Assembly (NCBI GenBank): GCA_964566795.1
Contig: CAZMIU010000001.1
Coordinates: 214,789 to 278,788, forward strand
Direction: 5' to 3'
Source: an uncultured Candidatus Saccharibacteria bacterium
GTDB lineage: Bacteria; Patescibacteriota; Minisyncoccia; Phycocordibacterales; SBAW01
Length of the DNA: 64,000 nt
This document shows, piece by piece, positions 12,444 to 57,157 of this stretch (position 1 is the stretch's first letter; each line of letters starts with the position of its first letter). A program made the translations under genes and the position numbers. The notes beneath the pieces are model-generated. The model saw only the letters and a program-made list of their open reading frames with translations. It ran no database searches and was not told the DNA's origin.

Positions 12444-13915
12444 TACCGGCCAAAGAGCCAGTTGATAAAGCGGGTAAGCCAGCCCTCGCCTGCCCCGGTC
12501 GAGGTGGCGTTAGCCGCAGTAGCCGTCTGTACCTTGGGGTCTATAACGCTACTATTCTCGTCTACCTTAACGTTGGGAGCGACCACGCTGCCCACAGCGG
12601 GCGCTGCTCCTGCCGCAGCAGGTGCCACTGCGCCAGCGCCTGTGGTGCCCATGCTCGTTATACCCTGCGCGCGCAGCTGGGGCTGCACCTGGCGCACATA
12701 GGCTATCTCCTCAATCTGGCTTGCCGAGAGCGGGAAGTCTTTCTGGAACTTGCAGTAGATAGTGTTTATCGTCTTTTGCGTTGTGTAGTACACGTAGCCG
12801 GTAGCGCCCCTGGCCCCCCACGGGGTGAGGATGTCTGCGGCGTACTTGTTCTGGAAGGCGTTAACCGCAGCAAGCGTTGCCGGGCCGTAGGTGCCTGTAA
12901 CCGGCAGGGTGTTGCCCTCAAAGGTGTTAAGGAACACCTGGAGCTTGGCCACCTCGCCTGCGTCGTTCTGCGCGCCATACTTGATATAGCCGGTGAGGTA
13001 CATGGGGCACTCATCCTGAGCACCCAACACCTCGCCCTGGCTGCCGCTGGAGCGCGAGCCGCCACTGCGGCGGTGCGAGCTGCCGCCCGATGAGTCGCCA
13101 TCGTCGTCATTGCTGCCGCCACCGCCGCCCTGACCCTCGTCGGTCTCATTGTCGTCCTGTGCGTCTGAGCAGCCCAGGTCTGCCGGGAAGTCGACTAGCC
13201 CGTCGCCGTCGTTGTCCTGGCTGTCGGAGCACTGCGCAGAGCCACCGCCGCCTGTAGAGTCGGTTTCGTCGGTGTCGTTGGCATCGGTGCAGCCCGGATC
13301 TGCCGGGAAGTCTGTCTTACCGTCGCCATCATTGTCCTGGCCGTCTGAGCAGGCAGGGTTGTTGCCGCCGCCCTGGTCAGTCTCGTCGGTGTCAGAGGGG
13401 CTCGAGCACCCCGGATCTGCCATGTCGACTTTGCCGTCGCCGTCGTTGTCCTGGCCGTCTGCACACTGTGCCGGCAGGGTAGGATCGTCGCCTTCGTTGT
13501 CATCGGTCGGCGTAGAACAGCCTGGGTCTGCGTCGGCATCACCCGGTACACCCCAATCTACTTTGCCGTCATTATCGTTATCGATGCCATCGTTGCACTG
13601 TGGAGGTACGGTGCAGGGCAGGTCGGACTGGCTTTGATTGCCCGGCAAATCCGGACACCAGTCTATTACCTGGCCGCCATCATCCTCGCAGTCCTCCTCA
13701 AACATCGGAAAGATCCCCGTGGTGCCATCACCCTCATCTCCCACCTGGTCAACCAAGCAGAGGATCTCTGTGGCAAGTGTTGCGTGCACGAGACGCTGGT
13801 TTCCCCAAACAAACGCGGTGAGCGCAAGCGCCACCGCCATCATGAAGGCGATAGACGTGCGCAATTCCCGAGTCAACGTCATAAGTAATATGATTACGCT
13901 ATTAAATAAAAGCAC
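12443..13915 (-). CDS. Secreted protein with 4-5 Cys-flanked Asp-rich calcium-binding repeats (CxDGQDNDGDGKxD…DPGC), a Gly/Ser linker and a C-terminal peptidoglycan-binding-like domain
   Basis: Repeats CADGQDNDGDGKVDMADPGC, CSDGQDNDGDGKTDFPADPGC, CSDSQDNDGDGLVDFPADLGC. C-terminal LQVFLNTFEGNTLPVTGTYGPATLAAVNAFQNKYAADILTPWG is paralogous to the C-terminus of the 928-aa protein. Confidence 0.75.
   Translation of the reverse strand: MLLFNSVIILLMTLTRELRTSIAFMMAVALALTAFVWGNQRLVHATLATEILCLVDQVGDEGDGTTGIFPMFEEDCEDDGGQVIDWCPDLPGNQSQSDLPCTVPPQCNDGIDNDNDGKVDWGVPGDADADPGCSTPTDDNEGDDPTLPAQCADGQDNDGDGKVDMADPGCSSPSDTDETDQGGGNNPACSDGQDNDGDGKTDFPADPGCTDANDTDETDSTGGGGSAQCSDSQDNDGDGLVDFPADLGCSDAQDDNETDEGQGGGGGSNDDDGDSSGGSSHRRSGGSRSSGSQGEVLGAQDECPMYLTGYIKYGAQNDAGEVAKLQVFLNTFEGNTLPVTGTYGPATLAAVNAFQNKYAADILTPWGARGATGYVYYTTQKTINTIYCKFQKDFPLSASQIEEIAYVRQVQPQLRAQGITSMGTTGAGAVAPAAAGAAPAVGSVVAPNVKVDENSSVIDPKVQTATAANATSTGAGEGWLTRFINWLFGR
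13150..13560. repeat. Tandem ~96-bp coding repeats (four copies) that encode the DNDGDGK calcium-binding modules
   Basis: Recurrent DNA blocks …ctgccgggaagtc..ccgtcgccgtcgttgtcctggc.gtc.gagca… are visible directly. Confidence 0.6.
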
Positions 13916-23380: not shown

Positions 23381-23908
23381 ATGAAAAAAGCATTAACGAC
23401 CGCACTACTGAGCCTTATCATCGCCTACTCGTTTGCGCCCGTGGCCCTGGCACCAGAGGCCTCTGCCGCACGCACCAGCCAAACGCCGGCTGCACTTGCC
23501 ATACCATCCATAGGCCTGGGGAGTCCCATTGTCCCCATGGGCCTTACGCAAGAGGGCGACCTGGATGTCCCCGACGGCACGACAAACAATGTCGGCTGGT
23601 ATGCCAAGGGCACCGTGCCGGGCGAGATGGGCAGTGCGGTGCTAGACGCGCACGTATACGCCGCGTTCTCCAACCTCGATGAGGTCAGGAAGGGCGACAT
23701 CATATACATTGCCATGAAGGACGGCGCCACTAGGGAGTTTAAGGTGACGGGCTCCAAAGTGTTTAAACTCTCCGAGCTCTCGAGCGAGGAGCTGTTTAAC
23801 CAAAAGGGCGGCCGCTACCTGCACCTTATAACCTGCGCCGGAGAGCTCACTCCCGACAAAAGCACCTACACACACCGCCTGGTGGTATACGCCGAGCTAG
23901 TCGACTAG
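23381..23908 (+). CDS. Sortase (transpeptidase)
   Basis: N-terminal anchor. LDAHV (catalytic His), HLITCAG (TLXTC Cys motif) and THRLVVYA (Arg). Confidence 0.8.
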   Translation: MKKALTTALLSLIIAYSFAPVALAPEASAARTSQTPAALAIPSIGLGSPIVPMGLTQEGDLDVPDGTTNNVGWYAKGTVPGEMGSAVLDAHVYAAFSNLDEVRKGDIIYIAMKDGATREFKVTGSKVFKLSELSSEELFNQKGGRYLHLITCAGELTPDKSTYTHRLVVYAELVD

Positions 23909-24989: not shown

Positions 24990-25856
24990 TTATTTATCGA
25001 ACAAGGTTGGTAAATACTCGTCTATCTCGCGCTGCTCGAGATCATAAAAGTTTTTCTCGCGGTCGTGGAGGTCGTCTGCGAGCGCCTTGCCCACAAAGCG
25101 CCAATGCCACGGCTCGTACACGTAGTACGAGTTGCCTTTAGGATAGCTCAGTACAAAACCGTACTTGTACGCGTACTTGCTCAGCCACTCATACGCTTGT
25201 GTCTTGTCAAACGACTCTACAAGTCCCTCTTGGCGCGAGCCCGAGAGGTCGATGGTGGTACCCAGCTGGTGCTCGGAATAGCCCTGGTCTGCGCTAAATG
25301 CGTTGGCCGTGCCTGCGCCATAGGTTACCGTATAGGCGCTTTTGAGCGCCTTTTGCTCATCAAACGAGCGGTAGGACGAGCGCACGTACATATCAACGCC
25401 GTCATCCTTGGCTTCATTAAGCATGTCCTCCAGGTATGGCAGGACCTGTGCGTTTATCTTTTCAGCCCGCGCCTCGTTGTAGGTAAACTCCTTCTCTATC
25501 TGGGCCAGCCTTGCGGGAGCATAGTGTTCGTTTAAAAAGAACACCTTAGAGTACTTCTGCAGCAGCTCGCGGTCGGTGTCCTTGAGCTTCTCCAGTATGT
25601 CTACCGTGCCCGATATGTCACCCACCTTATTTTCAAACCCGCCCAGGCGCTCCTGCACCGCAGCCAATGCCTGCTGTGCCGCATACAGCTGGTCTGAGAG
25701 GCTTGTCACCTTCTGCTCAAGCTCTGCGGTCGAGCTTGCCATCGCCTGGACGCTTGCCTGTACACCCGTGTAGCCCCACACGCCTGCTGCGCCCAGCAGG
25801 ACAAAAGCCACACCGCCCACAAGCGTTTGCCACGGTATATGCGCCAGGCGCTGCAT
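24990..25856 (-). CDS. D-alanyl-D-alanine carboxypeptidase (VanY / peptidase M15B) with an N-terminal TM and coiled coil
   Basis: SYRSFDEQ, GYSEHQLGTTIDL, EPWHWRFVG are the M15B motifs. Confidence 0.7.
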   Translation of the reverse strand: MQRLAHIPWQTLVGGVAFVLLGAAGVWGYTGVQASVQAMASSTAELEQKVTSLSDQLYAAQQALAAVQERLGGFENKVGDISGTVDILEKLKDTDRELLQKYSKVFFLNEHYAPARLAQIEKEFTYNEARAEKINAQVLPYLEDMLNEAKDDGVDMYVRSSYRSFDEQKALKSAYTVTYGAGTANAFSADQGYSEHQLGTTIDLSGSRQEGLVESFDKTQAYEWLSKYAYKYGFVLSYPKGNSYYVYEPWHWRFVGKALADDLHDREKNFYDLEQREIDEYLPTLFDK

Positions 25857-31078: not shown

Positions 31079-31876
31079 CTACTTTAGTTTGTAATACAGC
31101 TTGTCGCCAAAGCGCAGATCGAGATAAAGGAACTCCTCTAGTGCGTGCTCCAAAAACGGTCCGGCGGTAAGCGCCACAGAAAAGCGCTCAAACGTGTCAC
31201 CCGAGGCATCGCCGAGCGCAAACTTGAGCGTAAAGCCGTTATCAAACTCGGCCTCCACGTCGGCATGGTTGTCTATCGAGACAGTTTCAATCCTGCTGGT
31301 GGCAACCTTTTGCGAGAGTGCATCTACCAGGGAGAACAGTGCCTCAAACTGGTCGGCGTTCAGGTATTGGCGCGGGAGCTTGGCTCCTATTGTGGCACCA
31401 TGGTACTTAACAAAACTCTCTGTCTCCCCGGCCCGCGCGTACACCACGCCCTCTTGGTCCATTAAGTAGCAGTCGCTCCCCTGGCACCACAGGCTTTTTG
31501 GCTCGCGCTCTACAACCTCTACCTCGATAGTATGAAAGTCGCCCGCATGCACATCGGCCACCCTCAGCTCCGGGAAGCTTGATAAGAGCCCCTCGGCAAT
31601 TTTATCCTTGGGATATAAAAAGATATTGCGCCGCGGTATGACAAACAGATAGCGCCCCGCAATCTGGGACTCGACATAGTGCGTGATAGTCGTGGTGGCC
31701 AGCACAGAGACACCCGACACGGCAACCTGGCGGATTTGGACAAACGGAATATAAGAGATGCCTACCAGTATGGCGCACAGTATAAACAGCGCCCCAACAC
31801 AGACTAGTGCCAAGCGCACGCGGCGCCTTTTGCGCCGCGCTCTCAGTTTAGATTGTGGTAGCTCGACCCGAGCCAT
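31079..31876 (-). CDS. ftsQ: FtsQ/DivIB-like cell-division protein (POTRA-type)
   Basis: ORF trimmed to MARVELPQS… (the longer ORF overlaps serS). Basic N-terminus, single TM, extracytoplasmic POTRA-like region. Confidence 0.55.
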   Translation of the reverse strand: MARVELPQSKLRARRKRRRVRLALVCVGALFILCAILVGISYIPFVQIRQVAVSGVSVLATTTITHYVESQIAGRYLFVIPRRNIFLYPKDKIAEGLLSSFPELRVADVHAGDFHTIEVEVVEREPKSLWCQGSDCYLMDQEGVVYARAGETESFVKYHGATIGAKLPRQYLNADQFEALFSLVDALSQKVATSRIETVSIDNHADVEAEFDNGFTLKFALGDASGDTFERFSVALTAGPFLEHALEEFLYLDLRFGDKLYYKLK

Positions 31877-31895
31877 GTACCCAGTATAAACGACG

Positions 31896-33188
31896 TTATA
31901 CCACCACCTTCTCAAGCTTGGTCTTGCCGCCCATATAAGGACGCAGAGCCTCTGGCACGCTAATCGAGCCATCCTCCTCTTGGTAGTTTTCCATAATAGC
32001 GATGAGCGTGCGACCGATGGCGTAGGCAGTGGCATCGTTCATATGTACAGGCTCCACAGTGCCGTCTGCGCGCTTCAGGCGCGAGTTGAGGCGGCGTGCC
32101 TGATACCCGCCCATGTAGTCAGAGGTCTGAGTTTCGCGATAGGTGTTCTGGCCGGGCATCCACGACTCGATATCAAACTGGCGCTGGTCCGGGCCGCCCA
32201 TGTCGCCGGTGCAGGCAATAATGACCTGATACGGGATCTTGAGACGCTGCATAAGCTCCTCCTGCACCGCCACAAACAGCTCTTGCTCCGCGTAGCCGTC
32301 TTCCGGTTTGGCAAACGACTCCATCTCGATTTTGTCGAACTGGTGCTGACGCAAGATACCGCGCGTGTCTTTGCCCGCCGCGCCAGCCTCGCGCCTAAAC
32401 GCAGTCGAGTATCCCACATAGCGTATGGGCAGGCGGTCCTCAGCGATAACCTCATCCATATGTAGCGGCCCCAGCGTGTGTTCGGCCGAGCCCACAAGCA
32501 CCGTGTCCTCATCAAATACGTAGCGCTCATCACGGGGCTCGAGCCGCGCCATGCGGTTCATCACCTGCGGGCGCATCATAACCGGCACCACAACCGGCAC
32601 AAACGGCTTGTCCGACAGGCTGAGGCCCGCCTTCTCAATTATCTTCTTTAACTCCTCGCGCGAGGTCAAAATAGACATGCACAGCTGAATAAGTGCAAAT
32701 TGCATCAGCGCGAGGTCACCCTTTAAAAATGTAAAGCGCGCGCCGGAAATTTCTGCGGCCTTTTCGTTGTCGATAAGCCCAAGCGCTTTACCCAAGTCCC
32801 AATGCGCCTTAGGTGCAAATGTAAACTGCGGCTTCTGCCCCCATTGCCGCACCACCTGGTTGCCGGACTCGTCAGGGCCCACGGGCGTGTCGGCCGAGGG
32901 AATGTTGGGAATCTGCACGAGCAGTGAGACAAGCTCCTTCTCTACCTCGGCATATTTTTCCTCAATAGCCCTGCCCTCTTCCTTAAGGCGCTTGCCTGCC
33001 TCGCCGTCGCGGGCGGCCTGTGCCTCGCCGCGTTTTCTGTTAACCTCGCTAATGTCGCCGGCGAGCTTTTTGCGCTCATCGGCCAGGGCAACAACGCGGT
33101 CGAGGTCAACGACCCCCTCCTTGTTTTTATTCTTCATCGCCGCACGGACGATGTCGGGGTTCTCCCGTATAAATTGCACATCAAGCAT
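31896..33188 (-). CDS. serS: Seryl-tRNA synthetase
   Basis: MLDVQFIRENPD start. Class II aaRS motifs. Confidence 0.9.
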   Translation of the reverse strand: MLDVQFIRENPDIVRAAMKNKNKEGVVDLDRVVALADERKKLAGDISEVNRKRGEAQAARDGEAGKRLKEEGRAIEEKYAEVEKELVSLLVQIPNIPSADTPVGPDESGNQVVRQWGQKPQFTFAPKAHWDLGKALGLIDNEKAAEISGARFTFLKGDLALMQFALIQLCMSILTSREELKKIIEKAGLSLSDKPFVPVVVPVMMRPQVMNRMARLEPRDERYVFDEDTVLVGSAEHTLGPLHMDEVIAEDRLPIRYVGYSTAFRREAGAAGKDTRGILRQHQFDKIEMESFAKPEDGYAEQELFVAVQEELMQRLKIPYQVIIACTGDMGGPDQRQFDIESWMPGQNTYRETQTSDYMGGYQARRLNSRLKRADGTVEPVHMNDATAYAIGRTLIAIMENYQEEDGSISVPEALRPYMGGKTKLEKVVV

Positions 33189-38783: not shown

Positions 38784-39821
38784 CTAGATCGAAAATGAAC
38801 TAGGGTCGAAGGTGTTTTCGTCCTTCTCTTTTTCTTCTTTACTGCGGTCGTCCAAGCTGTTGCTGTCCTCTTGAGCGGGGCCTTGAGCGAGGGCGGCGGC
38901 AGAAGTTTCATCAGAAATAGTCTGGCCTGCCGGGGGCAGGAGACCCGAGGACTTTTCTGATGAAACTTCTGCCGGAGCTAATTTTGCAGCGGCAACTTTT
39001 GTTGCCAGGTTGGCAAAGATAACGCGCAGGTCGTCCTCGCCCATAAAGTCGATAACGAGCTTGCCGCCGTTTTCTTTTGTTTCAATTGCCACGCGGGTGC
39101 CAAGCACCTCGCCAAGCTGGCGCTCCATGTCTAAAATCTCGGGCGAGTACAAGTACTCTTTCTTGCGCACCTTATCAAACGCGATACGGCGGGCGATACT
39201 CTCGGTGTCGCGCACCGTTAAGCGCTTGACCATAATCTCCCTAAAGAGCGTGTTTTGCTCCTCTGGCCTGTCGCCTAGCATCAACAGCGGCCTGGTGTGA
39301 CCCTCGCTAATCTTGCCCTCCTTAAGAGCGGTAAGCATCTCCTCGGGGAGTGCGAGCAGGCGTATCGAGTTGGAGACGTATTCCCTGCTTTTGCCCACCT
39401 TCTCGGCAACCTCGGCATGCTTAAAGCCAAACTCCTTTACAAGCTGCTCAAAGGCCTTGGCACGGTCTACCGGGTTTAGGTCCTCGCGCTGGAGGTTCTC
39501 TACGATAGCGAGCTCGAGCTTGGTTTTGTCGTCATCCTCGGCCTCGCGGATAAGCGCGGGCACCGTGGCCACGCCGGCAATTTTGGAGGCGCGCAGGCGG
39601 CGCTCCCCCGCCACCAACTCGTACTCTGTGGCTATGCCGCCGTCTGGCTTGATGATCTCTTTGCGGGTAACCGTGAGCGGCTGGATGACGCCGTACTGGC
39701 GTATCGAGCGGGCCAGGTCGTTGAGCTTCGCCTCATCAAACTCGCGGCGCGGCTGAAACGGGTTTGGCTTAATCTTGTCTACCTCGACCCAAAAAATGGC
39801 GTTGTTGTAAAACTGCGACAT
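38784..39821 (-). CDS. parB: Chromosome partitioning protein ParB with an acidic, disordered C-terminal tail
   Basis: ORF trimmed to MSQFYNNAIFWVEVDKIKPNPFQPRR, because the longer ORF would overlap tRNA-Leu. ParB box GERRLRA. HTH region. Confidence 0.8.
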   Translation of the reverse strand: MSQFYNNAIFWVEVDKIKPNPFQPRREFDEAKLNDLARSIRQYGVIQPLTVTRKEIIKPDGGIATEYELVAGERRLRASKIAGVATVPALIREAEDDDKTKLELAIVENLQREDLNPVDRAKAFEQLVKEFGFKHAEVAEKVGKSREYVSNSIRLLALPEEMLTALKEGKISEGHTRPLLMLGDRPEEQNTLFREIMVKRLTVRDTESIARRIAFDKVRKKEYLYSPEILDMERQLGEVLGTRVAIETKENGGKLVIDFMGEDDLRVIFANLATKVAAAKLAPAEVSSEKSSGLLPPAGQTISDETSAAALAQGPAQEDSNSLDDRSKEEKEKDENTFDPSSFSI

Positions 39822-39842
39822 TGGCGATATTCTAACACGTAA

Positions 39843-39923
39843 GCCGGAGTGGCGTAATGGTAGCCGCGCTCGACTCAAAATCGAGTCCCGCAAGGGGTGG
39901 GAGTTCAAGTCTCCCCTCCGGCA
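39843..39923 (+). tRNA. tRNA-Leu (anticodon CAA), type II with long variable arm
   Basis: gccggag/ctccggc acceptor, loop ctCAAaa, variable arm tcccgcaaggggtggg, T-arm gagttcaagtctc. Confidence 0.85.
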
Positions 39924-39991
39924 CAAATTGGTTTTTTATAGCCCGTGTGGTAGCCTGCAGGGCGGACTTCCAATAGCAGCAAAGGTGTTCT

Positions 39992-41895: not shown

Positions 41896-41920
41896 ACCGG
41901 CCTAGTGGCCGGATTCTTTC
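41896..41920 (-). terminator. Rho-independent terminator of rpmG
   Basis: Minus strand reads ccggccactaggccgg followed by a T8 run. Confidence 0.7.
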
Positions 41921-42076
41921 TTACTTCTTGGCCTCCTTAAAGAGGACGTGCTTGCGGAGCACTTTGGAGTACTTCTTAAGCTCGATCTTGCGGGTAACAA
42001 GCTTCTTGTTTTTGCGCGTCCAATACACCTCCCCGGTGGCGGCGTGCTTAAGGATTATCAGTTTGTCCTGTGACAT
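41921..42076 (-). CDS. rpmG: 50S ribosomal protein L33
   Basis: Translates to MSQDKLIILKHAATGEVYWTRKNKKLVTRKIELKKYSKVLRKHVLFKEAKK (51 aa). Below the ORF-track cutoff. Confidence 0.85.
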   Translation of the reverse strand: MSQDKLIILKHAATGEVYWTRKNKKLVTRKIELKKYSKVLRKHVLFKEAKK

Positions 42077-42124
42077 TGCCCAATAACCTTACCAAATAGC
42101 CCTATTTTTGGCAACCTAGGGCAC

Positions 42125-42829
42125 CTATTTGACGATAGTAAAGCCTGATCCGGTTGTATAAGCCATTACTTGCCCCGGTTGGTACGTATTGCCGTCCCAG
42201 TCATGGCGCACTATATTGGTGCCCTCATCAGGACTCTCGCGTGTAGGTATATACAACGCCAGATACCCTCCAACAATGACGTTTGCGGTAGCAATCTCCG
42301 CGCCTGCAAGAGTAGTGAACACTTTTACCCAAGTACCATTCCTCTTTTGGTAGATATCAAATGTGCATCCTCCTGTCCCACAGAAACTCATCATAGTCTC
42401 GTACACCAGAGCCTCAGGGGCACCGTCTTGGTTGAGATCTACCATGGCAACATCTATTGCCGTCTCGTTTAATTTTGGAAATATCTCCTTATTAAGCGCG
42501 AAGTCGCTTGCGTATAGCTTATAAATCTCACCTTCAGCACCTTGAGACGCCTGGTCAACCCGTTTAAACGCCACACGCTGCCCGAGCAAAGCACGATACA
42601 GGGTGTCATATGCTTTATCGTAGTCTTGCAGGGTTTGACCCTGTGTCCCCTGCCTGGGCTGACTTGAAACACCCACGGTTGAGCGGCCGTTAAACGTTGA
42701 GTTTGGGTCGGTGGTGTTTGGGTTTGTCGTTGGTGTGGCTTTTGGACTTAAGACAAACCATGCAATACCAACCACTACCACGACAACCGCGATAGCTATG
42801 GCAAGTATTTTTGTAGCAAGAGGATTCAT
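42125..42829 (-). CDS. Hypothetical membrane-anchored extracytoplasmic protein
   Basis: N-terminal TM (ILAIAIAVVVVVVGIAWFVL). Thr/Asn-rich linker. Globular C-terminal domain with three Cys. Confidence 0.5.
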   Translation of the reverse strand: MNPLATKILAIAIAVVVVVVGIAWFVLSPKATPTTNPNTTDPNSTFNGRSTVGVSSQPRQGTQGQTLQDYDKAYDTLYRALLGQRVAFKRVDQASQGAEGEIYKLYASDFALNKEIFPKLNETAIDVAMVDLNQDGAPEALVYETMMSFCGTGGCTFDIYQKRNGTWVKVFTTLAGAEIATANVIVGGYLALYIPTRESPDEGTNIVRHDWDGNTYQPGQVMAYTTGSGFTIVK

Positions 42830-42847
42830 AGTGTGTATTGTACGGTA

Positions 42848-44611
42848 CTAGCGACAGGCGGTATTAACATAACTTACAGCGTTTGGGGGGACTCCTCCTG
42901 CTTTTATCACGTTGCCTGCACCCTGGAAGTAAGCTGCCGCAGTTATCTGGCACTCGCCGTACTGTTGGCGCAGCGAGGCAAGTGCAGGCAGAGTGCGCAT
43001 TTGCTCTATATATTGCACACCGAGCCTGGTCCCCAACTGCGTGTCGTTTTCGAGAGTCTGTATAACCGGCGCACACTGCGGCCTGATGCTGTTGCGGCTC
43101 GCCAAGCAAGCACCGCAACTGTCTGATATCGAGGAATCCATGCCACATGCGGTTGTAGCCAGCACCTGCATGCAGCCCGCGGCGCCTGTGTTGCTTGTTG
43201 TGCAGTTGCGACCTCCGCTCGACTCATTCATTGCAATTTTTGTCGCTAAAGCACAGTTGCCCCCATTTATCTGGACACAGGCCGCCTGTAGTTCTGCCGC
43301 CATGTTTGGATTGCTAATCCTGCCCTGAGTACGAGCCTCTACCCAGTCGTCGGGATTGTTGGGGTTCTCGCAGTAACCCCCTTCTTCGCTCGTATACGTG
43401 TACCCCGACGGGCATACTGACCCTCCGGATGAGCCCCCGGCACCGTAACTTGTGCCAGAGCCTACTGTGCTGTTGCCAACCGATACACTCACGCCGCAAT
43501 TAGAGTAGGTACATTCGCCAGTCGTGTTGTCGGTACAACCGCCAATTGCCGAGCTGTATGACGATCCGTTGGGACACATTTGGCCTGTTACCGGCACCCC
43601 GGCGCCGGGGTTTACACCGCAGTTTGAGAACGTACATTCATTTGTCGTGCTGTCTACACATCCGCCTAAAGACGACTGGAATATTGACCCGCTCGGACAT
43701 AACGGATTGTTGTATACAGGGTCGCTTGGTGGAGCCACGTTGGTATACCCCGAGAGGGTCGGGAGCGAGGTGTTGAGATAGTCCTTAATGCTCATGTTGT
43801 ACAGGCGCGCACCGCGTACTGCCCTGCAGTCGAGCGTGCGCCAGTCCCACGTGCCAAGCTGGCCCCCCTTCATGAGCATGTTCATGACCGTGTTTACCAG
43901 AGCCCACACGCTCACAATTATCAAAAACCCAATCAGCACAGTCTTAAATATCTTTTTGGCCGCATTGATATGCTCTGCCACGCCACGCGCGGCAAACAGC
44001 CTGATGCCCGCCCAGGCAAACAGGAGTGCCGCAGCCGGGACGCTGAGCCCCAACAAAAAGTTGGCGATGTTTTGTATAAGCTGTGCCAGCGAGCACAGGT
44101 CGCAGTTGGCTACCGTATTTTTGCCGCGGCACTCGGCGGGCACAATGCCGCCCACAAACCCGTTACCGGTTGGGGCTGTAAGCCCTCCGGTTGGCGCAGC
44201 AGGCACTACAACATTGGGCTGTGGGGCCGGCGTTGTGGGCACGCCGGTGCCGGTGCCGGTGGTCCCAGTGCCTGTAGCCCCGCCACCCCCCGAGCCACCG
44301 CCGGCACTTACAACAACTGCCGTGCGGCACACAACAGAGCCCCCGGGGCCCGTAAAGCTCGCGGCGTAGGTGGTGTTTTTACCCGGCACCACGTAGGCAA
44401 ACCCGGCCGATGGGATAGGCCCCACCTCGTTGAGGTAGCCGGCAGATGCGTTCTTACTTGTCCAGTCGAGACGCACACGGGTGTTGGGCGCCACGGTTGC
44501 GGCGCTTGCAAACAAGGTGCAGGTTGGCGCGGGCGCTGTCTGGCTTTGCGCTGATGCAAAAGTAGGCGCAACAAGCGCCAAAACAAGCAGGAGCCTCGCG
44601 AAGGCCTTCAT
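42848..44611 (-). CDS. 587-aa multidomain secreted protein: Ig-like N-terminal domain, Gly/Thr linker, VirB2/TrbC-pilin-like two-helix membrane hairpin, three Cys-rich repeats, C-terminal SLT-type lytic transglycosylase domain
   Basis: Signal peptide. FAWAGIRLFAARG…IGFLIIVSVWALVNTV is paralogous to the 55.3-57.2 kb small proteins. Repeats CPSGSIFQSSLGGCVDSTTNECTFSNCGV and CPNGSSYSSAIGGCTDNTTGECTYSNCGV. The SLT core IAMNESSGG…GAAGCMQV…AAAYFQGAGNV can be compared with Slt70 ARQESAWN…GASGLMQI…AAYNAGPG. Confidence 0.7.
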   Translation of the reverse strand: MKAFARLLLVLALVAPTFASAQSQTAPAPTCTLFASAATVAPNTRVRLDWTSKNASAGYLNEVGPIPSAGFAYVVPGKNTTYAASFTGPGGSVVCRTAVVVSAGGGSGGGGATGTGTTGTGTGVPTTPAPQPNVVVPAAPTGGLTAPTGNGFVGGIVPAECRGKNTVANCDLCSLAQLIQNIANFLLGLSVPAAALLFAWAGIRLFAARGVAEHINAAKKIFKTVLIGFLIIVSVWALVNTVMNMLMKGGQLGTWDWRTLDCRAVRGARLYNMSIKDYLNTSLPTLSGYTNVAPPSDPVYNNPLCPSGSIFQSSLGGCVDSTTNECTFSNCGVNPGAGVPVTGQMCPNGSSYSSAIGGCTDNTTGECTYSNCGVSVSVGNSTVGSGTSYGAGGSSGGSVCPSGYTYTSEEGGYCENPNNPDDWVEARTQGRISNPNMAAELQAACVQINGGNCALATKIAMNESSGGRNCTTSNTGAAGCMQVLATTACGMDSSISDSCGACLASRNSIRPQCAPVIQTLENDTQLGTRLGVQYIEQMRTLPALASLRQQYGECQITAAAYFQGAGNVIKAGGVPPNAVSYVNTACR

Positions 44612-44692: not shown

Positions 44693-44779
44693 GCGTCGGT
44701 GGCGGAGTGGTCAATCGCAACTGGCTGTAAACCAGTCGCCCTTGCGGCTACGTAGGTTCGAATCCTACCCGGCGCACCA
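44693..44779 (+). tRNA. tRNA-Tyr (anticodon GTA), type II; CCA encoded
   Basis: gcgtcgg/ccggcgc acceptor (one G-U pair), loop ctGTAaa, long variable arm, T-arm gtaggttcgaatcctac, 3' ACCA. Confidence 0.85.
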
Positions 44780-51876: not shown

Positions 51877-51883
51877 CTTTTTG

Positions 51884-51956
51884 TGCGCCTACCTGGGCTC
51901 GAACCAGGGACCATCTCCTTAAGAGGGAGTTGCTCTACCAACTGAGCTATAGGCGC
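51884..51956 (-). tRNA. tRNA-Lys (anticodon CTT)
   Basis: Reverse complement reads gcgcctatagctcagttggtagagcaactccctCTTaaggagatggtccctggttcgagcccaggtaggcgca. Confidence 0.8.
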
Positions 51957-52011
51957 ATGAGCGAACAGAACAGTAATACCATACCCCAAAAAACTCTTTC
52001 CTTCAATCTTG

Positions 52012-52094
52012 TGCCGAGGGTGGGAGTCGAACCCACACGACCTTGCGGTCAGGGGAGTTTAAGTCCCCGCTGTCTACCATTCCATCACCTCGGC
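52012..52094 (-). tRNA. tRNA-Leu (anticodon TAA), type II
   Basis: Reverse complement reads gccgaggtgatggaatggtagacagcggggacTTAAActcccc…ggttcgactcccaccctcggca. Confidence 0.8.
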
Positions 52095-52134
52095 GTTTCC
52101 TATTTGTATCACAAATGGTAGATTGATGAAGTCT

Positions 52135-52206
52135 GGCCACGTAGCCAAGTAGAAAGGCGCGGGACTGCAAATCCTGTATGCGCGGGTGCGATTCCCGCCG
52201 TGGCCT
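52135..52206 (+). tRNA. tRNA-Cys (anticodon GCA), with an atypical T-loop
   Basis: ggccacg/cgtggcc acceptor, loop ctGCAaa. The T-arm reads gcggg-tgcgatt-cccgc, which puts G where the conserved U55 is expected. Confidence 0.7.
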
Positions 52207-52221
52207 CAAGGTACTAGGTAT

Positions 52222-52303
52222 GCTGGGGTGGCGAAATTGGTAGACGCACCTGCCTTAGGAGCAGGCCCCGCAAGGGATGGAGGTTCAAGTCCTCTCCCCA
52301 GCA
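52222..52303 (+). tRNA. tRNA-Leu (anticodon TAG), type II
   Basis: gctgggg/ccccagc acceptor, loop ctTAGga, variable arm ccccgcaagggatgg, T-arm gaggttcaagtcctc. Confidence 0.8.
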
Positions 52304-52320
52304 CAACGGTCAATAGGTAA

Positions 52321-52378: not shown

Positions 52379-52439
52379 GATGAGAAGGTTGGCTCACCCA
52401 GAGCCGCCACACTTCTTCGACAACCCAAAGGGGCACATA

Positions 52440-53546
52440 ATGTTCAACACAACGCAGATCGTGATCTTGATGGTCATGGCGCTTTCGCTTTTGGGCTTCG
52501 CGGCCCTCTGGCAGTTTCGTGGCAGTCTCACGACTGTCATGGGCAGTCTGACTCAAACTACCCTTCCTCAAGCCACATCCGGCGGATCGCTGTTTAACAC
52601 CAGCTTTCTGCTCGCGATAGTGTTTTGGTTGGCTGTAGGGTATCTCTTTGGTGTCCCCTTCAGCAGGTGGACAGCAAGTGCTCTTGGCTTAAGCGGATTG
52701 TCGATATTGCACAGCGGTATCACCATCGCGATTGCTGCTGCAGGTATGGTGTGGGTTACCCACAACACACCGACCAATCACAAGACAGCTGTCTTGTTTT
52801 TTGGTACAGCACGCTTTCGCGTCGGGCCGCGTGGCAACGGATTCGAGGAAGGGCTCAACGCCCTGCCTTTGGGTTGGCCGTTTTTTGTCGCACACGACAG
52901 GAACGTCAACCAGTTCGTTGAAAAGTTCGACCAGATGAAAGCGTATTCCCAAGACAGGCAGCCGGTCAGAATCTCCGGCACCTTTCGGCGGTACATAGAC
53001 GACATCTACGCGGCATACAATATCAACAACGCGGACGGGCAAGAGACAGAGGCTGTGCAGGAGCTCGTAAGCACCACGCTCGGCTACATCCGGGACGGTG
53101 CCGAAGACTTCACTGCAGTGCAACTCATCTCTGAACACCCGGGCGGGTCCGGTCCAACCAAGAAAGTTCTCGCGGAGTCTGCCTACGAAAAAGTTCAGGC
53201 ATACCTCGCGGGGGCAAATACGATCGGCTACAACATTACGCCGATCCTCATCAACGAGGTTGACCTCGACCCCGACTTCGAAAAGGCTCTCAAGGCCAAG
53301 TCGAGGGAGGAAGTCGAGGGCGAGGCGGAGCAAGTGCAGATCGAGCGGCGACTTAAGCAGATTGATACGCTTAAGGAAAAGGGCGTCAACGCCGATCTCG
53401 CCGCATCCGTCGCGCAAGTTGAGGCTGAAAAGCCGGGGGCGAAGATCAACACGATCAACATCCCCGGCATGCAAGGCATAGGAGAGGCCGCCGGCAACGC
53501 CGGCAAGGCGTTCTCCGAGTGGCTTCGCAACAGACCAACCCAATAG
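52440..53546 (+). CDS. SPFH/band-7 (prohibitin/HflC-like) domain membrane protein
   Basis: ORF trimmed to MFNTTQIV…, because the upstream ATG lies 3 nt after the -10 box. AAAGGGG SD. Several N-terminal TMs. The C-terminal INEVDLDPDFEKALKAKSREEVEGEAEQVQIERRLKQI is an SPFH-type Ala/Glu-rich helix. Confidence 0.55.
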   Translation: MFNTTQIVILMVMALSLLGFAALWQFRGSLTTVMGSLTQTTLPQATSGGSLFNTSFLLAIVFWLAVGYLFGVPFSRWTASALGLSGLSILHSGITIAIAAAGMVWVTHNTPTNHKTAVLFFGTARFRVGPRGNGFEEGLNALPLGWPFFVAHDRNVNQFVEKFDQMKAYSQDRQPVRISGTFRRYIDDIYAAYNINNADGQETEAVQELVSTTLGYIRDGAEDFTAVQLISEHPGGSGPTKKVLAESAYEKVQAYLAGANTIGYNITPILINEVDLDPDFEKALKAKSREEVEGEAEQVQIERRLKQIDTLKEKGVNADLAASVAQVEAEKPGAKINTINIPGMQGIGEAAGNAGKAFSEWLRNRPTQ

Positions 53547-53555
53547 GAGCAAAAG

Positions 53556-54446
53556 ATGAACAGACTTGGTATTGCAGTAGGGATTATCCTGAGCGTAATA
53601 GCTGTGGCTCTCGGGCTTCAGATATTTATTGACTCGGGGATGTCGACTGCTCCCACAACTGCAGGTGCTTCGGGAGATGCAACAGCTATAGTCCTTAAGT
53701 GGGCTGTCGTTGCACTCATCATTGCACTCGCTGTTGCAGGCGTCATGTGGCTTTTCTCCCGGGTCCGGCCCGCTGCACCTGCCACGGCAGGTGCGGCAGC
53801 AGGCTTTGCGTGGAGGCCACCTACGTGGCTGGTCGCTCTTGTGGCCGTCGTCCTTCTCGCGTACTTCTGGACGACGATCATTGCGCTGTTTCCGCCGGGC
53901 ACACAGGCTCGTCTTGTGGGCTTCGGGAACGCGCTGGCGACCAACTGGGTCCTTACGGGCCTCATACTCGCCGCCCTGCTGTTTGTTCTCAAGCAGCGGA
54001 CAGCGGCGATCATTGTGGGTGGTCTGGCGGTGCTGGCGTTCTTCTTGATGCCGGATGCCGGAGGGCTCAACCGGGCCGAGCGGTTCCACACTTGGATCAC
54101 GACGCCTGCGCCCAACCTTTCTCATCGGGCTACCCCGCAAGAGGAGGTCTGGGCGCACAACACCAGCCGCGACTGCCCTGGCAAGCTGCTGGGCCCCTAC
54201 AGGCTCAGCACAGCCGAGGTGAAGTTTAACCCCAACGGATGCTTCTTCTATGCGTTGGGTAGCGGAGAGGTTAAGTTCTCGGGCCTATTCTTTGGCGACC
54301 TCACAGTCGACCTCAAGACGGGCGCGGGCGACTCCACGGCAGGCATGAAAGTGTATACTGCCAGAGCCTCCTACGCTCCGGTGACGTGGCAGTACATCCT
54401 CTGCTCCGGTCCCAAAAAGGACATGAGCACGCTGGATTGCCGATAG
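53556..54446 (+). CDS. Polytopic membrane protein (6-7 TM) with a C-terminal extracytoplasmic Cys-containing domain
   Basis: Hydrophobicity pattern. Co-transcribed with the SPFH gene (10-nt gap). Confidence 0.5.
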   Translation: MNRLGIAVGIILSVIAVALGLQIFIDSGMSTAPTTAGASGDATAIVLKWAVVALIIALAVAGVMWLFSRVRPAAPATAGAAAGFAWRPPTWLVALVAVVLLAYFWTTIIALFPPGTQARLVGFGNALATNWVLTGLILAALLFVLKQRTAAIIVGGLAVLAFFLMPDAGGLNRAERFHTWITTPAPNLSHRATPQEEVWAHNTSRDCPGKLLGPYRLSTAEVKFNPNGCFFYALGSGEVKFSGLFFGDLTVDLKTGAGDSTAGMKVYTARASYAPVTWQYILCSGPKKDMSTLDCR

Positions 54447-54559: not shown

Positions 54560-55279
54560 ATGATACGATATATGCATATGAATAAAACCTTTATTACTAC
54601 TCTCCTGGTATTGGCGGCTATTTCTATGCCCTACTTTGCCTCTGCCTCGACAGTATCTGACACCTACGACACCACCTGGATAGATACAGGCTATTACGAT
54701 ACCTTTGAGCCCATCTACGACACGGTAGCTTCCGGGGGCTCGCAGTCTTATCGCTCCGGCTTCTCTGTCCCTGCCGGCCTCTCGGTTCGCTCAGGCTTCT
54801 CTGTCCCCTCTGGCCGCTCGGTATTCTCCGGCCGCTCCACACCTTCTGGCCGCTCAGTACGCTCCGGCTACTCGGTACCCTCGGGCATCCCGTATAACCC
54901 AGCCTACTCTGCAGTATCCGGCTACTCGACCCGCTCGGGTTACTCGGTGCAGTCCGGATACTCCACCCCCTCTGGCACAGCAGCCCAGTCTGGCTACTCT
55001 GCCCAGTCTGGCACAGCGGCGCAGTCGGGCTATGCTGCTCAGTCTGGCAAGTCTGTACAGTCCGGATACTCTGGCCCCTCGGGCAAGTCTGCAAACTCCG
55101 GCTACTCTGCACAGTCTGGCTACAGCATCGCCTCGGGCTACTCGGCACCGTCCGGCTACAGCATCGCCTCAGGCTACTCCGCCCAGTCTGGCTACTCGGT
55201 GCCCTCCGGTTACTCTGCCCCGTCCGGGTTCTCGGCACCAGGCACACAGATCGGCTACCTAAGCCCCATATACAAGTAA
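54560..55279 (+). CDS. Secreted protein made almost entirely of ~35 hexapeptide SG(Y/F)S-x-x repeats
   Basis: Signal peptide MNKTFITTLLVLAAISMPYFASA. Then …SGYSAQSGYSIASGYSAPSGYSIASGYSAQSGYSVPSGYSAPSGFS…. The underlying 18-nt DNA periodicity is visible at 54760-55250. Confidence 0.7.
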   Translation: MIRYMHMNKTFITTLLVLAAISMPYFASASTVSDTYDTTWIDTGYYDTFEPIYDTVASGGSQSYRSGFSVPAGLSVRSGFSVPSGRSVFSGRSTPSGRSVRSGYSVPSGIPYNPAYSAVSGYSTRSGYSVQSGYSTPSGTAAQSGYSAQSGTAAQSGYAAQSGKSVQSGYSGPSGKSANSGYSAQSGYSIASGYSAPSGYSIASGYSAQSGYSVPSGYSAPSGFSAPGTQIGYLSPIYK

Positions 55280-55328: not shown

Positions 55329-55592
55329 TTACCAGCACGGCAGCGTGCCGCCGACCACGTTTGAGATAATTTTAATAACGGCGATAGCAGAGACCATGAT
55401 GATCATACCCAAAAGCCCGTAGCCCATGTGCCTCTTGCCGTCCTCGCGCTTGCTGCTCTCCTGGCTGAGGCCCCACATAAACTCCACAAGCCCAAAAATA
55501 AACACAAGCAGGCCTACAGCAAACAAGAGTGCCAGCGCGGGGTTTACAATCGCGCCCACTATCTTTCCAACTATTGAGCAGGTCGCTGTCAT
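55329..55592 (-). CDS. Small two-helix membrane protein, VirB2/TrbC-pilin-like paralog 5
   Basis: LLVFIFGLVEFMWG-loop(SQESSKREDGKR)-LLGMIIMVSAIAVIKII. Shares its architecture with the four upstream ORFs. Confidence 0.55.
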   Translation of the reverse strand: MTATCSIVGKIVGAIVNPALALLFAVGLLVFIFGLVEFMWGLSQESSKREDGKRHMGYGLLGMIIMVSAIAVIKIISNVVGGTLPCW

Positions 55593-55594
55593 GG

Positions 55595-55921
55595 TCAGTA
55601 GATAGCGTTTGCAGAGCTATTGCCCGTGCCCGGATATATAATCTGCGGCGCCTTGCCGGTCGCGTTGGCATTAATGCCGAGTGCCGTCTGCATGAGCGCG
55701 ATAATCCCCCACACCGACACCATCACAAAGAGTATAAGCAGGCCCCACTTCATCAGCGTCTTGGCCTTGTCTATCTCGGGGCCGGCGCCGCTGCCCCACA
55801 TGTACTTAACCAAGCCCCAGAGGAATACCGCCAGGCCAAGCGTAACAAGCACCGGCACGAGCATCCCGACAACCTTTGCCAGGGCGGATATGAGGCTCAC
55901 GAGTGGAGAGAGGTTAAGCAT
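55595..55921 (-). CDS. VirB2/TrbC-pilin-like paralog 4
   Basis: LAVFLWGLVKYMWGSGAGPEIDKAKTLMKWGLLILFVMVSVWGIIALMQTALGI is ~60% identical to paralog 3. Confidence 0.6.
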   Translation of the reverse strand: MLNLSPLVSLISALAKVVGMLVPVLVTLGLAVFLWGLVKYMWGSGAGPEIDKAKTLMKWGLLILFVMVSVWGIIALMQTALGINANATGKAPQIIYPGTGNSSANAIY

Positions 55922-55956
55922 ACGGCAAAAGGGCCGGCGTCAGCCGGCCCTTTAGG

Positions 55957-56313
55957 CTACATCGGGTAGAGTACTTGCGGCGAGGTTGCACCTGCGTTGG
56001 GGTTAATGCCGAGCGCATCTTGTGCCAGGCGCACAATGCCCCAGACAGACACCATCACAAACAGCGTTACAAGGCCCCAGATCATCAAGTCGCGGTTGGA
56101 CTTGGTGCCATCTGCGCCGCCTGCCTTCAGGAGATAGCGCACCAGACCAAAGAAGAACACCACCAGTGCCAGCGTAATAAGGACCGGGACAAGCGCACCC
56201 ACAAGGCGGGCGATGGCGCCAATGAGGTTAGCCAAAGGCTGGAGGCTCTGGGCTGAGGCTGCAAACGGCATAGCCATCAAAAGGGCTGCAGAAGCTACGG
56301 ATATCTTTTTCAT
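55957..56313 (-). CDS. VirB2/TrbC-pilin-like paralog 3, with a cleavable signal peptide
   Basis: MKKISVASAALLMAMPFAASAQS signal, then LVVFFFGLVRYLLKAGGADGTKSNRDLMIWGLVTLFVMVSVWGIVRLAQDALGI. Confidence 0.6.
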   Translation of the reverse strand: MKKISVASAALLMAMPFAASAQSLQPLANLIGAIARLVGALVPVLITLALVVFFFGLVRYLLKAGGADGTKSNRDLMIWGLVTLFVMVSVWGIVRLAQDALGINPNAGATSPQVLYPM

Positions 56314-56449
56314 GTGTAATTATTATTGTAAACCTACGCGCACCACCTAATGAATATGCTGTTAATAGTAGCAGGCTGCGCGTAGCGACAGCTTGCGCGT
56401 GTGGATATCTCCGGCGTTTCCGGCCAAGTCCGTACCAGAGCGTCGGACT

Positions 56450-56686
56450 CTAGGCCACAAAGATGTTCTGCACCACCTGCAGTATCCCAAACACCGACAC
56501 AATGATAAACAGCACAAGCAGGCTCCACCCCAAAAACTCCTTCTGGGCCTGTTTGCGCGCATCCTGCGCATAAAACAGGTAGCGCACGCCGCCCCAGATA
56601 AACACGGCCAAGGCAACCGAGCCTAAAAGCGCCACAAGCAGGTTAATAATCGAGATAATCTGCGACACGAGTGTTGAGAGTGTCAT
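56450..56686 (-). CDS. VirB2/TrbC-pilin-like paralog 2 (78 aa, no signal peptide)
   Basis: LAVFIWGGVRYLFYAQDARKQAQKEFLGWSLLVLFIIVSVFGILQVV. Confidence 0.55.
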   Translation of the reverse strand: MTLSTLVSQIISIINLLVALLGSVALAVFIWGGVRYLFYAQDARKQAQKEFLGWSLLVLFIIVSVFGILQVVQNIFVA

Positions 56687-56689
56687 GTA

Positions 56690-57157
56690 TTAGGTGCGGC
56701 CGCAGAACTGTATCGTGCCCGAGGTGTCGAGTGTCTGTATGGTTGCGGCAATGATGGTGGCCAGGGTCCACGCGCCTAAAAACACGGCAATACCCACAAT
56801 GACAAAGTAGAAGTTGCGTTTGGCCTCCTCAAGCTTGGTCGAGTTGCCGCGCGCCAGAATAAACTTAAAGCCCGACCACACAAAGAAGAACACGGCCACG
56901 GGCAGCCCTATGGCCAGTACAACGTTAAGGAGGCTGCGCACCAGGTCGCAGAAGTTTTTAACCCCCAGAGGGTCGCAGAGCGTAAAGGTGCCGTCGCTGC
57001 CTGGCCCGCACCCGCCACCGGTCGTATACGCCGAGCCACCACCCGTGGTAAAGGTAGAGCCGCCGCCGGTTGTAAAGGTTCCCTGTGCCATAGTCAGTTG
57101 AGGCACCAGAACTGAGGCAAACAGTGCGAGCGTTGCGATGTGTTTTATGAACTTCAT
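56690..57157 (-). CDS. VirB2/TrbC-pilin-like paralog 1, with a signal peptide and a TFTTGGGS-repeat N-terminal extension
   Basis: MKFIKHIATLALFASVLVPQLTMAQG signal. GTFTTGGGSTFTTGGGSAYTTGGG. Cys pair. Then VFFFVWSGFKFILARGNSTKLEEAKRNFYFVIVGIAVFLGAWTLATII. Confidence 0.6.
   Translation of the reverse strand: MKFIKHIATLALFASVLVPQLTMAQGTFTTGGGSTFTTGGGSAYTTGGGCGPGSDGTFTLCDPLGVKNFCDLVRSLLNVVLAIGLPVAVFFFVWSGFKFILARGNSTKLEEAKRNFYFVIVGIAVFLGAWTLATIIAATIQTLDTSGTIQFCGRT

Follow-up and report, generated by a model that had tools for sequence, protein, structure and literature searches.

A pilin-like membrane hairpin fused to an exchangeable peptidoglycan hydrolase, with a putative cognate partner, in Paceibacteria-type genomes

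We analyzed a 587-residue secreted protein encoded at positions 42848..44611 (minus strand) of a 64,000-nucleotide stretch of DNA (hereafter, the window) from an uncultured Candidatus Saccharibacteria bacterium (GenBank assembly GCA_964566795.1, contig CAZMIU010000001.1, positions 214,789 to 278,788). The protein joins a two-helix hairpin of the VirB2/type IV secretion system (T4SS) pilin type to a lytic transglycosylase domain, and in close relatives the enzyme end is exchanged, together with the gene directly downstream, for other peptidoglycan hydrolases that have downstream genes of their own. The best reading of these observations, to which we give a probability of roughly 0.55, is a peptidoglycan hydrolase anchored by a pilin-like hairpin and paired with a cognate inhibitor or immunity protein. 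A preliminary description of the gene had taken it for a composite secreted protein, and the fusion of pilin-like hairpin and lytic transglycosylase is borne out here by a match to the Pfam T4SS pilin family above its threshold and by a profile match of the C-terminal domain to the transglycosylase Slt70.

The open reading frame (ORF) begins with an ATG at 44611, and its GC content at third codon positions (GC3 = 0.64) is typical of genes in the window. An identical NCBI protein (P0001), encoded on a 590,566-bp contig, is annotated as 555 amino acids with a start 32 residues downstream and, as annotated, lacks a signal peptide that is kept across all homologues. Because of this conservation the ATG at 44611 is the likely start, and the public annotation is probably a start-codon mis-call. 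The signal peptide covers residues 1–21 (MKAFARLLLVLALVAPTFASA|Q; 44549..44611, minus strand): a hydrophobic segment spans 1–22, the peptide is kept in 24 of 24 aligned homologues, M1, L13, and P16 are invariant in that alignment, and the cleavage site is predicted from an AxA motif. Hydropathy analysis detected three hydrophobic segments, the signal peptide and two more at residues ~181–207 and ~215–248, and, combined with the positive-inside rule, suggests a topology that places both terminal parts outside and the basic loop between the two helices inside. All 26 cysteines of the protein lie away from the hydrophobic helices, in what would be its external parts. With 24 homologues as input, AlphaFold2 gave a model that had a mean predicted local distance difference test score (pLDDT) of 64.5, with high values inside domains, and showed a confident immunoglobulin (Ig)-like domain, the hairpin, and the transglycosylase domain with disordered linkers between them.

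The hairpin comprises residues 161–262 (43826..44131, minus strand), with C161, C170, C173, and C262 as invariant alignment columns. The Pfam family T4SS_pilin (PF18895) matched residues 174–242 at profile positions 4–71 of 71 with 37.6 bits, against a gathering score of 26.6, and it also matched 82 of 94 relatives; the NCBIfam model for Mbov_0395 pilin-like proteins gave a weak match to the hairpin. In the AlphaFold2 model the helices span residues 170–207 and 212–248, and the loop at 208–223 contains the basic residues R209, K219, K220, and K223. Five small VirB2/T4SS-pilin-like genes (87, 108, 118, 78, and 155 amino acids) form an array elsewhere in the window (55329..57157, minus strand). 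PF18895 matched all five over nearly the whole length of the profile (E-values of 3.5e-10 to 0.055, one above threshold), and a hidden Markov model (HMM) built from the fusion-family hairpin alone recovered four of the five (E-values of 5.9e-14 to 2.6e-3). In the alignment the five share 19–30% identity with the fusion hairpin. The proposal that the fusion carries the same module as these small proteins is therefore upheld by the family match, the alignment, and the hairpin HMM, and a hairpin that scores above a curated pilin threshold is not a generic transmembrane pair unrelated to the array.

By its sequence, the 155-residue small pilin (56690-57157, minus strand) resembles the closest paralogue of the N-terminal part of the fusion: it has a signal peptide, three copies of a TFTTGGGS Gly/Thr repeat, cysteines just before helix 1, and one after helix 2. 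Beside the array, on the plus strand (54560-55279), lies a gene for a 239-residue secreted protein that consists almost entirely of degenerate 'SGYS(x)(P/Q)SG' Ser/Gly/Tyr repeats and has a sub-threshold collagen match. Elsewhere in the Patescibacteria, loci L028, L029, L034, and L038 hold small hairpin genes in tandem arrays of three to five. One of them has a 304-residue ORF with three hairpin copies in a single chain (L038, 6680-7594), and another has a 415-residue protein with the hairpin at its end (L034, 5059-6306).

The C-terminal domain of the fusion (residues 435–587; 42851..43309, minus strand) is a family-1 lytic transglycosylase of the SLT/GH23 type. Searched as a single sequence, it fell narrowly below the threshold of the Pfam family SLT (PF01464; 20.6 versus 21.3 bits, residues 452–490 only), and several homologues have a precomputed match to this family. 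A profile of the domain and its homologues (A3) searched against PDB found Slt70 of Escherichia coli (1QSA) with an E-value of 5.4e-10. Glu463, in the motif 'NES' (nucleotides 43223-43225), aligns with the catalytic Glu478 of Slt70 ('aiaanEssGg' versus 'aiarqEsawn') and is invariant in all 12 sequences of alignment A3, while GCMQ (479–482) and AAAYFQGAG (558–566) align with GLMQ and AAYNAGPG of Slt70. The Slt70 match is split by a Cys-rich insertion of ~35 amino acids between the GCMQ and AAYxxG motifs. In the AlphaFold2 model the domain is helical, with pLDDT values of 80–92. The SLT catalytic signature read in the preliminary description thus holds, its glutamate falling on the catalytic residue of Slt70, and with its catalytic motifs intact the domain is predicted to cut the glycan strands of peptidoglycan.

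The preliminary description considered the arrangement unusual, which does not apply within its lineage, where it is common to hundreds of protein clusters. A phmmer search against 1.84 billion cluster representatives (50% identity) returned 4133 at E ≤ 1e-3, 568 at ≤ 1e-10, and 82 at ≤ 1e-30. The closest proteins (50 close homologues) came from CPR (candidate phyla radiation) metagenomes, and the related loci found in species-representative genomes are recorded as Candidatus Kaiserbacteria, Adlerbacteria, Nomurabacteria, Paceibacterota, or Parcubacteria. In about 150 of 181 proteins collected, a tail of 160–370 amino acids comes after the hairpin, and the Ig-like domain is present in most as well. 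The fusion is a widespread family of Paceibacteria-type CPR genomes and not a one-genome oddity. Residues 1 to ~284 are conserved throughout the homologues and the C-terminal domain is not homologous across members; all tails that can be named by Pfam are peptidoglycan hydrolases, namely SLT, SLT_3 (lysozyme-like), CHAP, RPF-like transglycosylase, and NlpC/P60.

From every fetched locus we took the fusion gene with its downstream neighbour and clustered both, which left 35 non-redundant loci. The type of tail predicted the downstream family without exception: SLT was followed by a family that we call PA in 13 of 13 cases, SLT_3 by PB in nine of nine, and CHAP by PC in seven of seven, so that 29 of 29 loci were concordant. 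Spacing between the fusion and partner genes was −3 to +27 nucleotides in clean cases. In whole-sequence clustering PB and PC merge through their transmembrane segment plus linker, and they separate when the C-terminal parts are clustered. Four rare tail types (L018, L022, L067, and L070) had no Pfam match, and their 'downstream ORFs' look spurious; the tails of L070 and L018 may be LAS/M15 metallopeptidase-like ('SxHxxxxAxD ... HxH').

A tree of the adjacent clpB gene indicates that the pairing of enzyme and partner does not simply follow phylogeny. Three pairs of sister taxa, with bootstraps of 100, 99, and 100, hold different cassettes: L001 (SLT_3/PB) groups with L006 and the window, both SLT/PA; L009 (CHAP/PC) is sister to L013 (SLT/PA); and L012 (SLT/PA) is sister to L026 (CHAP/PC). 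A fourth mixed pair, L019 and L024, has a bootstrap of 87. Comparison of the window with L001 by blastn delimited the exchanged block, made up of the last ~300 fusion codons together with the partner gene (42123..43760). The two sequences are colinear from upstream of clpB to 43761, at codon 284 of the fusion gene; beyond this point DNA similarity is absent save for a 47-nucleotide island in the third Cys module, and it resumes at 42122, directly after the stop codon of the partner. The left breakpoint lies at the end of a conserved junction segment (residues 263–284, ...RLYNMSIKDYLNTSLPTLSGY; 43760..43825, minus strand), in which R269, L279, L283, and P284 are conserved, and the identity profile falls beyond residue ~285.

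At the protein level, the window and L001 are 92% identical in ClpB, 67% in the N-terminal part of the fusion, 31% in the C-terminal part, and 25% in the partner. Compared with L006, which has the same cassette type, identity is 93% in ClpB, 29% in the C-terminal part, and 38% in the partner. The N-terminal part is just 60–67% identical where ClpB is 92–93% identical. Within the SLT type, distances of enzyme and partner are correlated (Mantel r = 0.30, p ~0.03), and neither correlates with the hairpin. These sequence comparisons point to the enzyme domain being a module that is exchanged together with its cognate downstream gene, as an effector/inhibitor-type cassette would be, and not a fixed structural part. 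This exchange, the main feature of the gene, is absent from the preliminary description.

The partner gene in the window (family PA, 234 amino acids; 42125..42829, minus strand) starts 18 nucleotides after the stop codon of the fusion and pairs with the SLT tail. In its product an N-terminal transmembrane helix leads through a disordered linker to a beta-rich domain that bears a DLNxDG...CGTGGC motif (model pLDDT 77). The globular parts of PA, PB, and PC are mutually unrelated, and all three families share one build, an N-terminal transmembrane helix followed by a low-complexity linker and a globular domain. A Pfam search of PA, PB, and PC gave no match. Compared with known folds, by sequence and with Foldseek, PA showed only weak FG-GAP/integrin-blade similarity. 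PA has few relatives; the distant ones are 175-residue proteins (P0187–P0191) with a lipoprotein-type signal (…GCSSN) and the motif DLNQDG…CGTGGC, which carry a precomputed label from other tools (PF27665/UCP028175). Inhibition of the enzyme by its partner is the role we lean toward, at slightly better than even chances.

The conserved N-terminal part begins, after the signal peptide, with an Ig-like beta-sandwich (residues 28–101; 44309..44530, minus strand) that AlphaFold2 models as seven strands at a pLDDT of ~90 and that contains the conserved Cys31 and Cys95. A Foldseek search with the full-length model gave weak Ig/PKD-type matches only, because the N-terminal domain dominates the multidomain model. 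The same domain recurs in 4–16 tandem copies in giant proteins of up to 1,930 amino acids (P0054, P0063, P0117, and others in the representative library), which suggests that it is a common surface-repeat module of the lineage. It is followed by a low-complexity Gly/Thr/Pro linker (residues 102–160; 44132..44308, minus strand) that varies in length among homologues, has its Gly/Thr part at residues 103–123, and lies in a region (residues 105–174) with a pLDDT below 50. An Ig-like domain and a Gly/Thr linker upstream of the hairpin, as first described, are accordingly both present. A PDB search with the single sequence returned only matches of the Gly-rich linker to the linkers of single-chain variable fragments, which are meaningless, and a profile search was needed.

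Between the junction and the enzyme lie small Cys-rich beta-hairpin modules (43328..43699, minus strand), consisting of repeat 1 (residues 305–333), repeat 2 (346–374), and a degenerate module (400–428). The first two are identical at 19 of 29 positions, which ranks first among all 140,185 ungapped 29-mer pairs of the protein. The third shares eight of 29 residues, essentially the CPSG...GG.C half, so of the three Cys-rich repeats of ~29 residues claimed in the preliminary description two stand as full repeats and the third is degenerate. AlphaFold2 places short strand pairs in these modules, and they gave a weak match to CBM_14 (E = 0.16). Around residues ~410–425 of the degenerate module, CPSGYTYTSEEGGYCENPNNPDDW (43338-43384, minus strand) is the sole stretch in the cassette that is still similar at the DNA level (83% over 47 nucleotides) to the SLT_3-type locus L001, and the module may be an adaptor shared in front of different enzymes.

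A Pfam scan of 50 ORFs in the window, including all of at least 230 amino acids, placed the fusion gene among housekeeping genes (ClpB, ParB, MiaA, RelA/SpoT, TopA, SerRS, IF-2, RbfA, DprA, and the clamp loader); GyrA was assigned by eye from its ORF translation. Wall-related genes in the window encode two PG_binding_1 proteins (1004-3790, minus strand, 928 amino acids, also with DUF11; 12443-13915, minus strand, 490 amino acids), VanY (24990-25856), a sortase (23381-23908), and FtsQ (31079-32035), from which it follows that the cell possesses a peptidoglycan wall and anchors proteins at its surface. Gene order is kept in five related contigs (IF-2/RbfA, DUF4446, aminotransferase, ClpB, fusion, small unknown gene, L33, MiaA, ParB, RelA, and TopA), and ClpB lies upstream of the fusion gene in 21 of 21 loci checked. 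Co-transcription with clpB was rejected on account of a tRNA-Tyr gene (44693..44779, plus strand; ARAGORN) on the opposite strand between the two. On the other side, rpmG, encoding L33 (41921-42076), and a hairpin resembling an intrinsic terminator (41897-41912; together 41897..42076, minus strand), identified from sequence and a terminator scan, form the cassette's conserved right flank, where the transcription unit probably ends; an L33 gene is likewise found after the partner gene at L001 and L004 and on the contig of P0033. A promoter scan was uninformative, with three sites found against 1.9 expected.

Other features of the window concern the surroundings. A tRNA-Leu(CAA) gene (39843-39924, plus strand) is 100% identical over 83 nucleotides to the copy in L001, where it has the opposite orientation, and its flanks are ~75–82% identical; the long ParB ORF (38784-39926) over-extends into it. 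Four tRNA genes (Lys, Leu, Cys, and Leu) on both strands occupy 51883-52304, just after rbfA. A 489-residue ORF on the minus strand (52689-54158) is probably spurious: it has no Pfam match and overlaps two plus-strand ORFs (52380-53546 and 53556-54446), one of which is SPFH/Band_7.

We propose the following working for a pilin-anchored hydrolase with a cognate partner. The protein would be exported by the Sec pathway, and after removal of the leader the hairpin would anchor it in the membrane with the basic loop in the cytoplasm, so that both flanking parts would face outward. Residues 1–284 would serve as a chassis and the enzyme end as an exchangeable 'warhead' (SLT here, lysozyme-like SLT_3 or the peptidase CHAP in close relatives), each type travelling with its own small, N-terminally membrane-anchored, outward-facing partner. 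In the producer membrane the partner would bind the hydrolase and keep it inactive, shielding the cell's own wall. The pilin-like hairpin could let pilus machinery related to T4SSs extract the protein along with the small pilins encoded at 55–57 kb; the enzyme would thereby leave its anchored inhibitor and act on the wall of a host or neighbour, or locally where the pilus crosses the wall, with binding provided by the Ig-like domain and the Cys modules.

Several published and general observations lend indirect support to the T4SS link in this model. VirB4 was found in 2,417 of 3,035 Patescibacteria assemblies, and arrays of 2–11 VirB2 genes are common (PMC12102498); in S. epibionticum the array of pilins is essential (PMC10633639). 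The T4SS cluster of S. epibionticum contains separate lysozyme-like/cysteine-peptidase and M15-peptidase proteins beside six PF18895 pilins (SEML1_0014–0019). Hydrolases and pilins that are separate there are fused here, which provides a Rosetta-stone argument for their functional association. Extensions added to the C-terminus of F-pilin are exposed at the surface of the pilus, and VirB4 is believed to pull pilin out of the membrane; both would make a pilus model physically plausible. Incorporation of the fusion protein into a pilus is a tentative and somewhat doubtful step. The mature protein has ~565 amino acids, with folded domains on either side of the hairpin, and pilins are ~7–15 kDa. 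The wider proposal that a VirB2-like pilin is the delivery chassis of a polymorphic effector system, with exchangeable warheads and membrane-anchored immunity proteins, by which the ultrasmall epibionts of the Paceibacteria-type CPR breach the wall of a host or competitor, appears rather unlikely on present sequence evidence.

A number of points weigh against the reading as a pilin-anchored hydrolase with an inhibitor or immunity partner. Because the mature protein is very unlike a VirB2 pilin of 7–10 kDa, it may never polymerise. VirB4, VirD4, VirB6, and VirB8 were not found in the 64-kb window, T4SS genes never stood beside the fusion gene in the related loci examined, and none lay within ±10 kb of the gene in five related loci. 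The conduit suggested in the preliminary description, as in type IV secretion, consequently found no support in the search for virB4, virD4, and virB6 in the window, where the fusion gene sits after clpB; with no T4SS genes in the window or locus, the link to a conduit comes from hairpin homology only. A core physiological role would also agree with the conserved synteny among housekeeping genes. Approximately 56 of 94 non-SLT members have a tail with no Pfam match. HMMs of the three enzymes and the three partners matched cognate positions only, in the window and all loci, so that orphan cassettes were not detected. The number of independent origins of a pairing is only three, and the perfect pairing could partly be hitch-hiking, since only the chassis and rpmG are conserved for recombination and the block moves as a whole.

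Some of the same observations would suit a VirB1-type enzyme built into the pilin, whose hairpin would dock the hydrolase at the assembly site of the cell's own T4SS or pilus to open the producer wall, with the downstream protein as regulator or activator. We think this unlikely. SLT and CHAP are the exact domain set of Gram-positive VirB1-type hydrolases such as PrgK and TraG, and most VirB2-bearing Patescibacteria have no detectable VirB1 (PMC12102498), a gap that the fusion could fill. That the hairpin is homologous to the small pilins, that the gene occurs once, at a fixed place in the chromosome with conserved synteny, and that the window and loci yielded no orphan cassettes all agree with such a role, but the fusion gene lies outside T4SS clusters in every locus seen, and repeated swaps to a non-homologous enzyme and partner between close relatives (ClpB 92%) would be unusual for a housekeeping assembly factor. 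The divergence of the N-terminal part relative to ClpB also runs counter to it and suggests a fast-evolving surface protein.

An ordinary autolysin, which would remodel the wall in growth, division, or turnover and use the hairpin as a two-pass anchor only, with the downstream protein as a physiological regulator, is improbable. Many autolysins are regulated by dedicated partners (EnvC-amidase and FtsEX-PcsB are examples), the neighbours clpB, rpmG, miaA, parB, relA, and topA are housekeeping genes, and the FtsQ, VanY, sortase, and PG-binding proteins of the window imply a wall to remodel. Against this, the hairpin exceeds a curated pilin threshold and is homologous to the pilin array, so it is not a generic transmembrane pair, and the chassis also bears the Ig-like domain that recurs in giant multi-repeat proteins; a bond-specific morphogenetic role is unlikely because glycosidase and peptidase are interchanged. 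Two transmembrane helices with a muralytic domain superficially resemble a holin-endolysin pair, and phage lysins often carry SLT and CHAP domains, but a prophage remnant in which a holin-like hairpin is fused to an endolysin is highly improbable given the lack of phage genes nearby, the fixed position among core genes (ClpB 77–93% identical), the Sec signal peptide and extracellular Ig-like domain, and a hairpin that matches a pilin family and not holins. Mis-assembly or a frameshift that joined separate pilin and SLT genes has a negligible probability; nothing but the rarity of such fusions in well-studied bacteria speaks for it, whereas an identical NCBI protein exists, dozens of independent assemblies have the same end-to-end architecture, and the GC3 is ordinary for the window.

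Read as a pilin-anchored hydrolase with a cognate partner, the fusion can be compared with several known systems. It shares the hairpin family, two helices and a basic loop, with the PF18895 pilin arrays of Patescibacteria (Quinonero-Coronel et al. 2025, PMC12102498; Wang et al. 2023, PMC10633639), and the window likewise holds a five-gene array of small paralogues, of the kind reported for the phylum (PMC12102498). In contrast to those pilins, its hairpin lies inside 587 amino acids, with extracellular extensions of 150 amino acids at the N-terminal and 340 at the C-terminal side, and its gene is not in a T4SS cluster or pilin array. The VirB1-type hydrolases of monoderm T4SSs (PrgK of pCF10 and TraG of pIP501) are likewise membrane-anchored and extracytoplasmic, with SLT/lysozyme-like and/or CHAP/NlpC-P60 domains (PMC12102498). 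They are encoded inside the transfer operon, have a single N-terminal transmembrane segment or signal, often carry two enzyme domains per chain, and have no known cognate downstream partner, whereas the fusion has one enzyme domain that is exchanged on a pilin chassis; like a canonical VirB1 it has the hydrolase domain, but its gene lies outside a T4SS cluster. CwlT of ICEBs1 is a VirB1-type hydrolase of the same build as PrgK and TraG.

Peptidoglycan-hydrolase effector/immunity pairs are known from contact-dependent antagonism, as in X-Tfe/X-Tfi of the Xanthomonas T4SS (XAC2609/XAC2610), Tse1/Tsi1 of the type VI secretion system, and TelC/TipC of the type VII secretion system. Effectors of these types are soluble and use the secretion signal XVIPCD, PAAR/VgrG, or LXG, whereas here the pilin-like hairpin is the putative delivery part. 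The design resembles that of polymorphic toxins (CdiA-CT/CdiI, Rhs, and LXG), which have a conserved N-terminus, a sharp junction after a conserved motif, non-homologous C-termini, and a co-varying downstream gene; the conserved N-terminus with its sharp junction and the co-varying downstream gene were both found in the fusion family. Unlike in polymorphic toxins, the warheads identified here so far are all wall hydrolases, with no nuclease, deaminase, or pore former among them, orphan cassettes were not seen, and the gene is single-copy in a housekeeping neighbourhood.

The elements are thus known separately: PF18895 pilins and their arrays, the SLT and CHAP hydrolases of monoderm T4SSs, effector/immunity pairs, and the cassette design of polymorphic toxins. 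A pilin hairpin as the chassis of an exchangeable wall hydrolase with a cognate partner has no published description in the searchable literature, and a 2025 survey of T4SSs in Patescibacteria lists VirB1 and VirB2 homologues apart and reports no fusion of them (PMC12102498). In the only genetically tractable CPR bacterium, a T4SS with an array of VirB2-like pilins is essential (PMC10633639; PMC12857230). The widespread pilin-hydrolase family ties the pilus system, in a concrete and testable way, to attack on, or passage through, the wall, and the swaps of hydrolase and partner between close relatives suggest a cell-cell interface under diversifying pressure like that of effector/immunity systems. 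If the housekeeping reading were true, the fusion would be the missing VirB1-equivalent of Paceibacteria; if the partner is an inhibitor, these loci would represent three new families of wall-hydrolase inhibitors and a new trafficking mode for polymorphic effectors.

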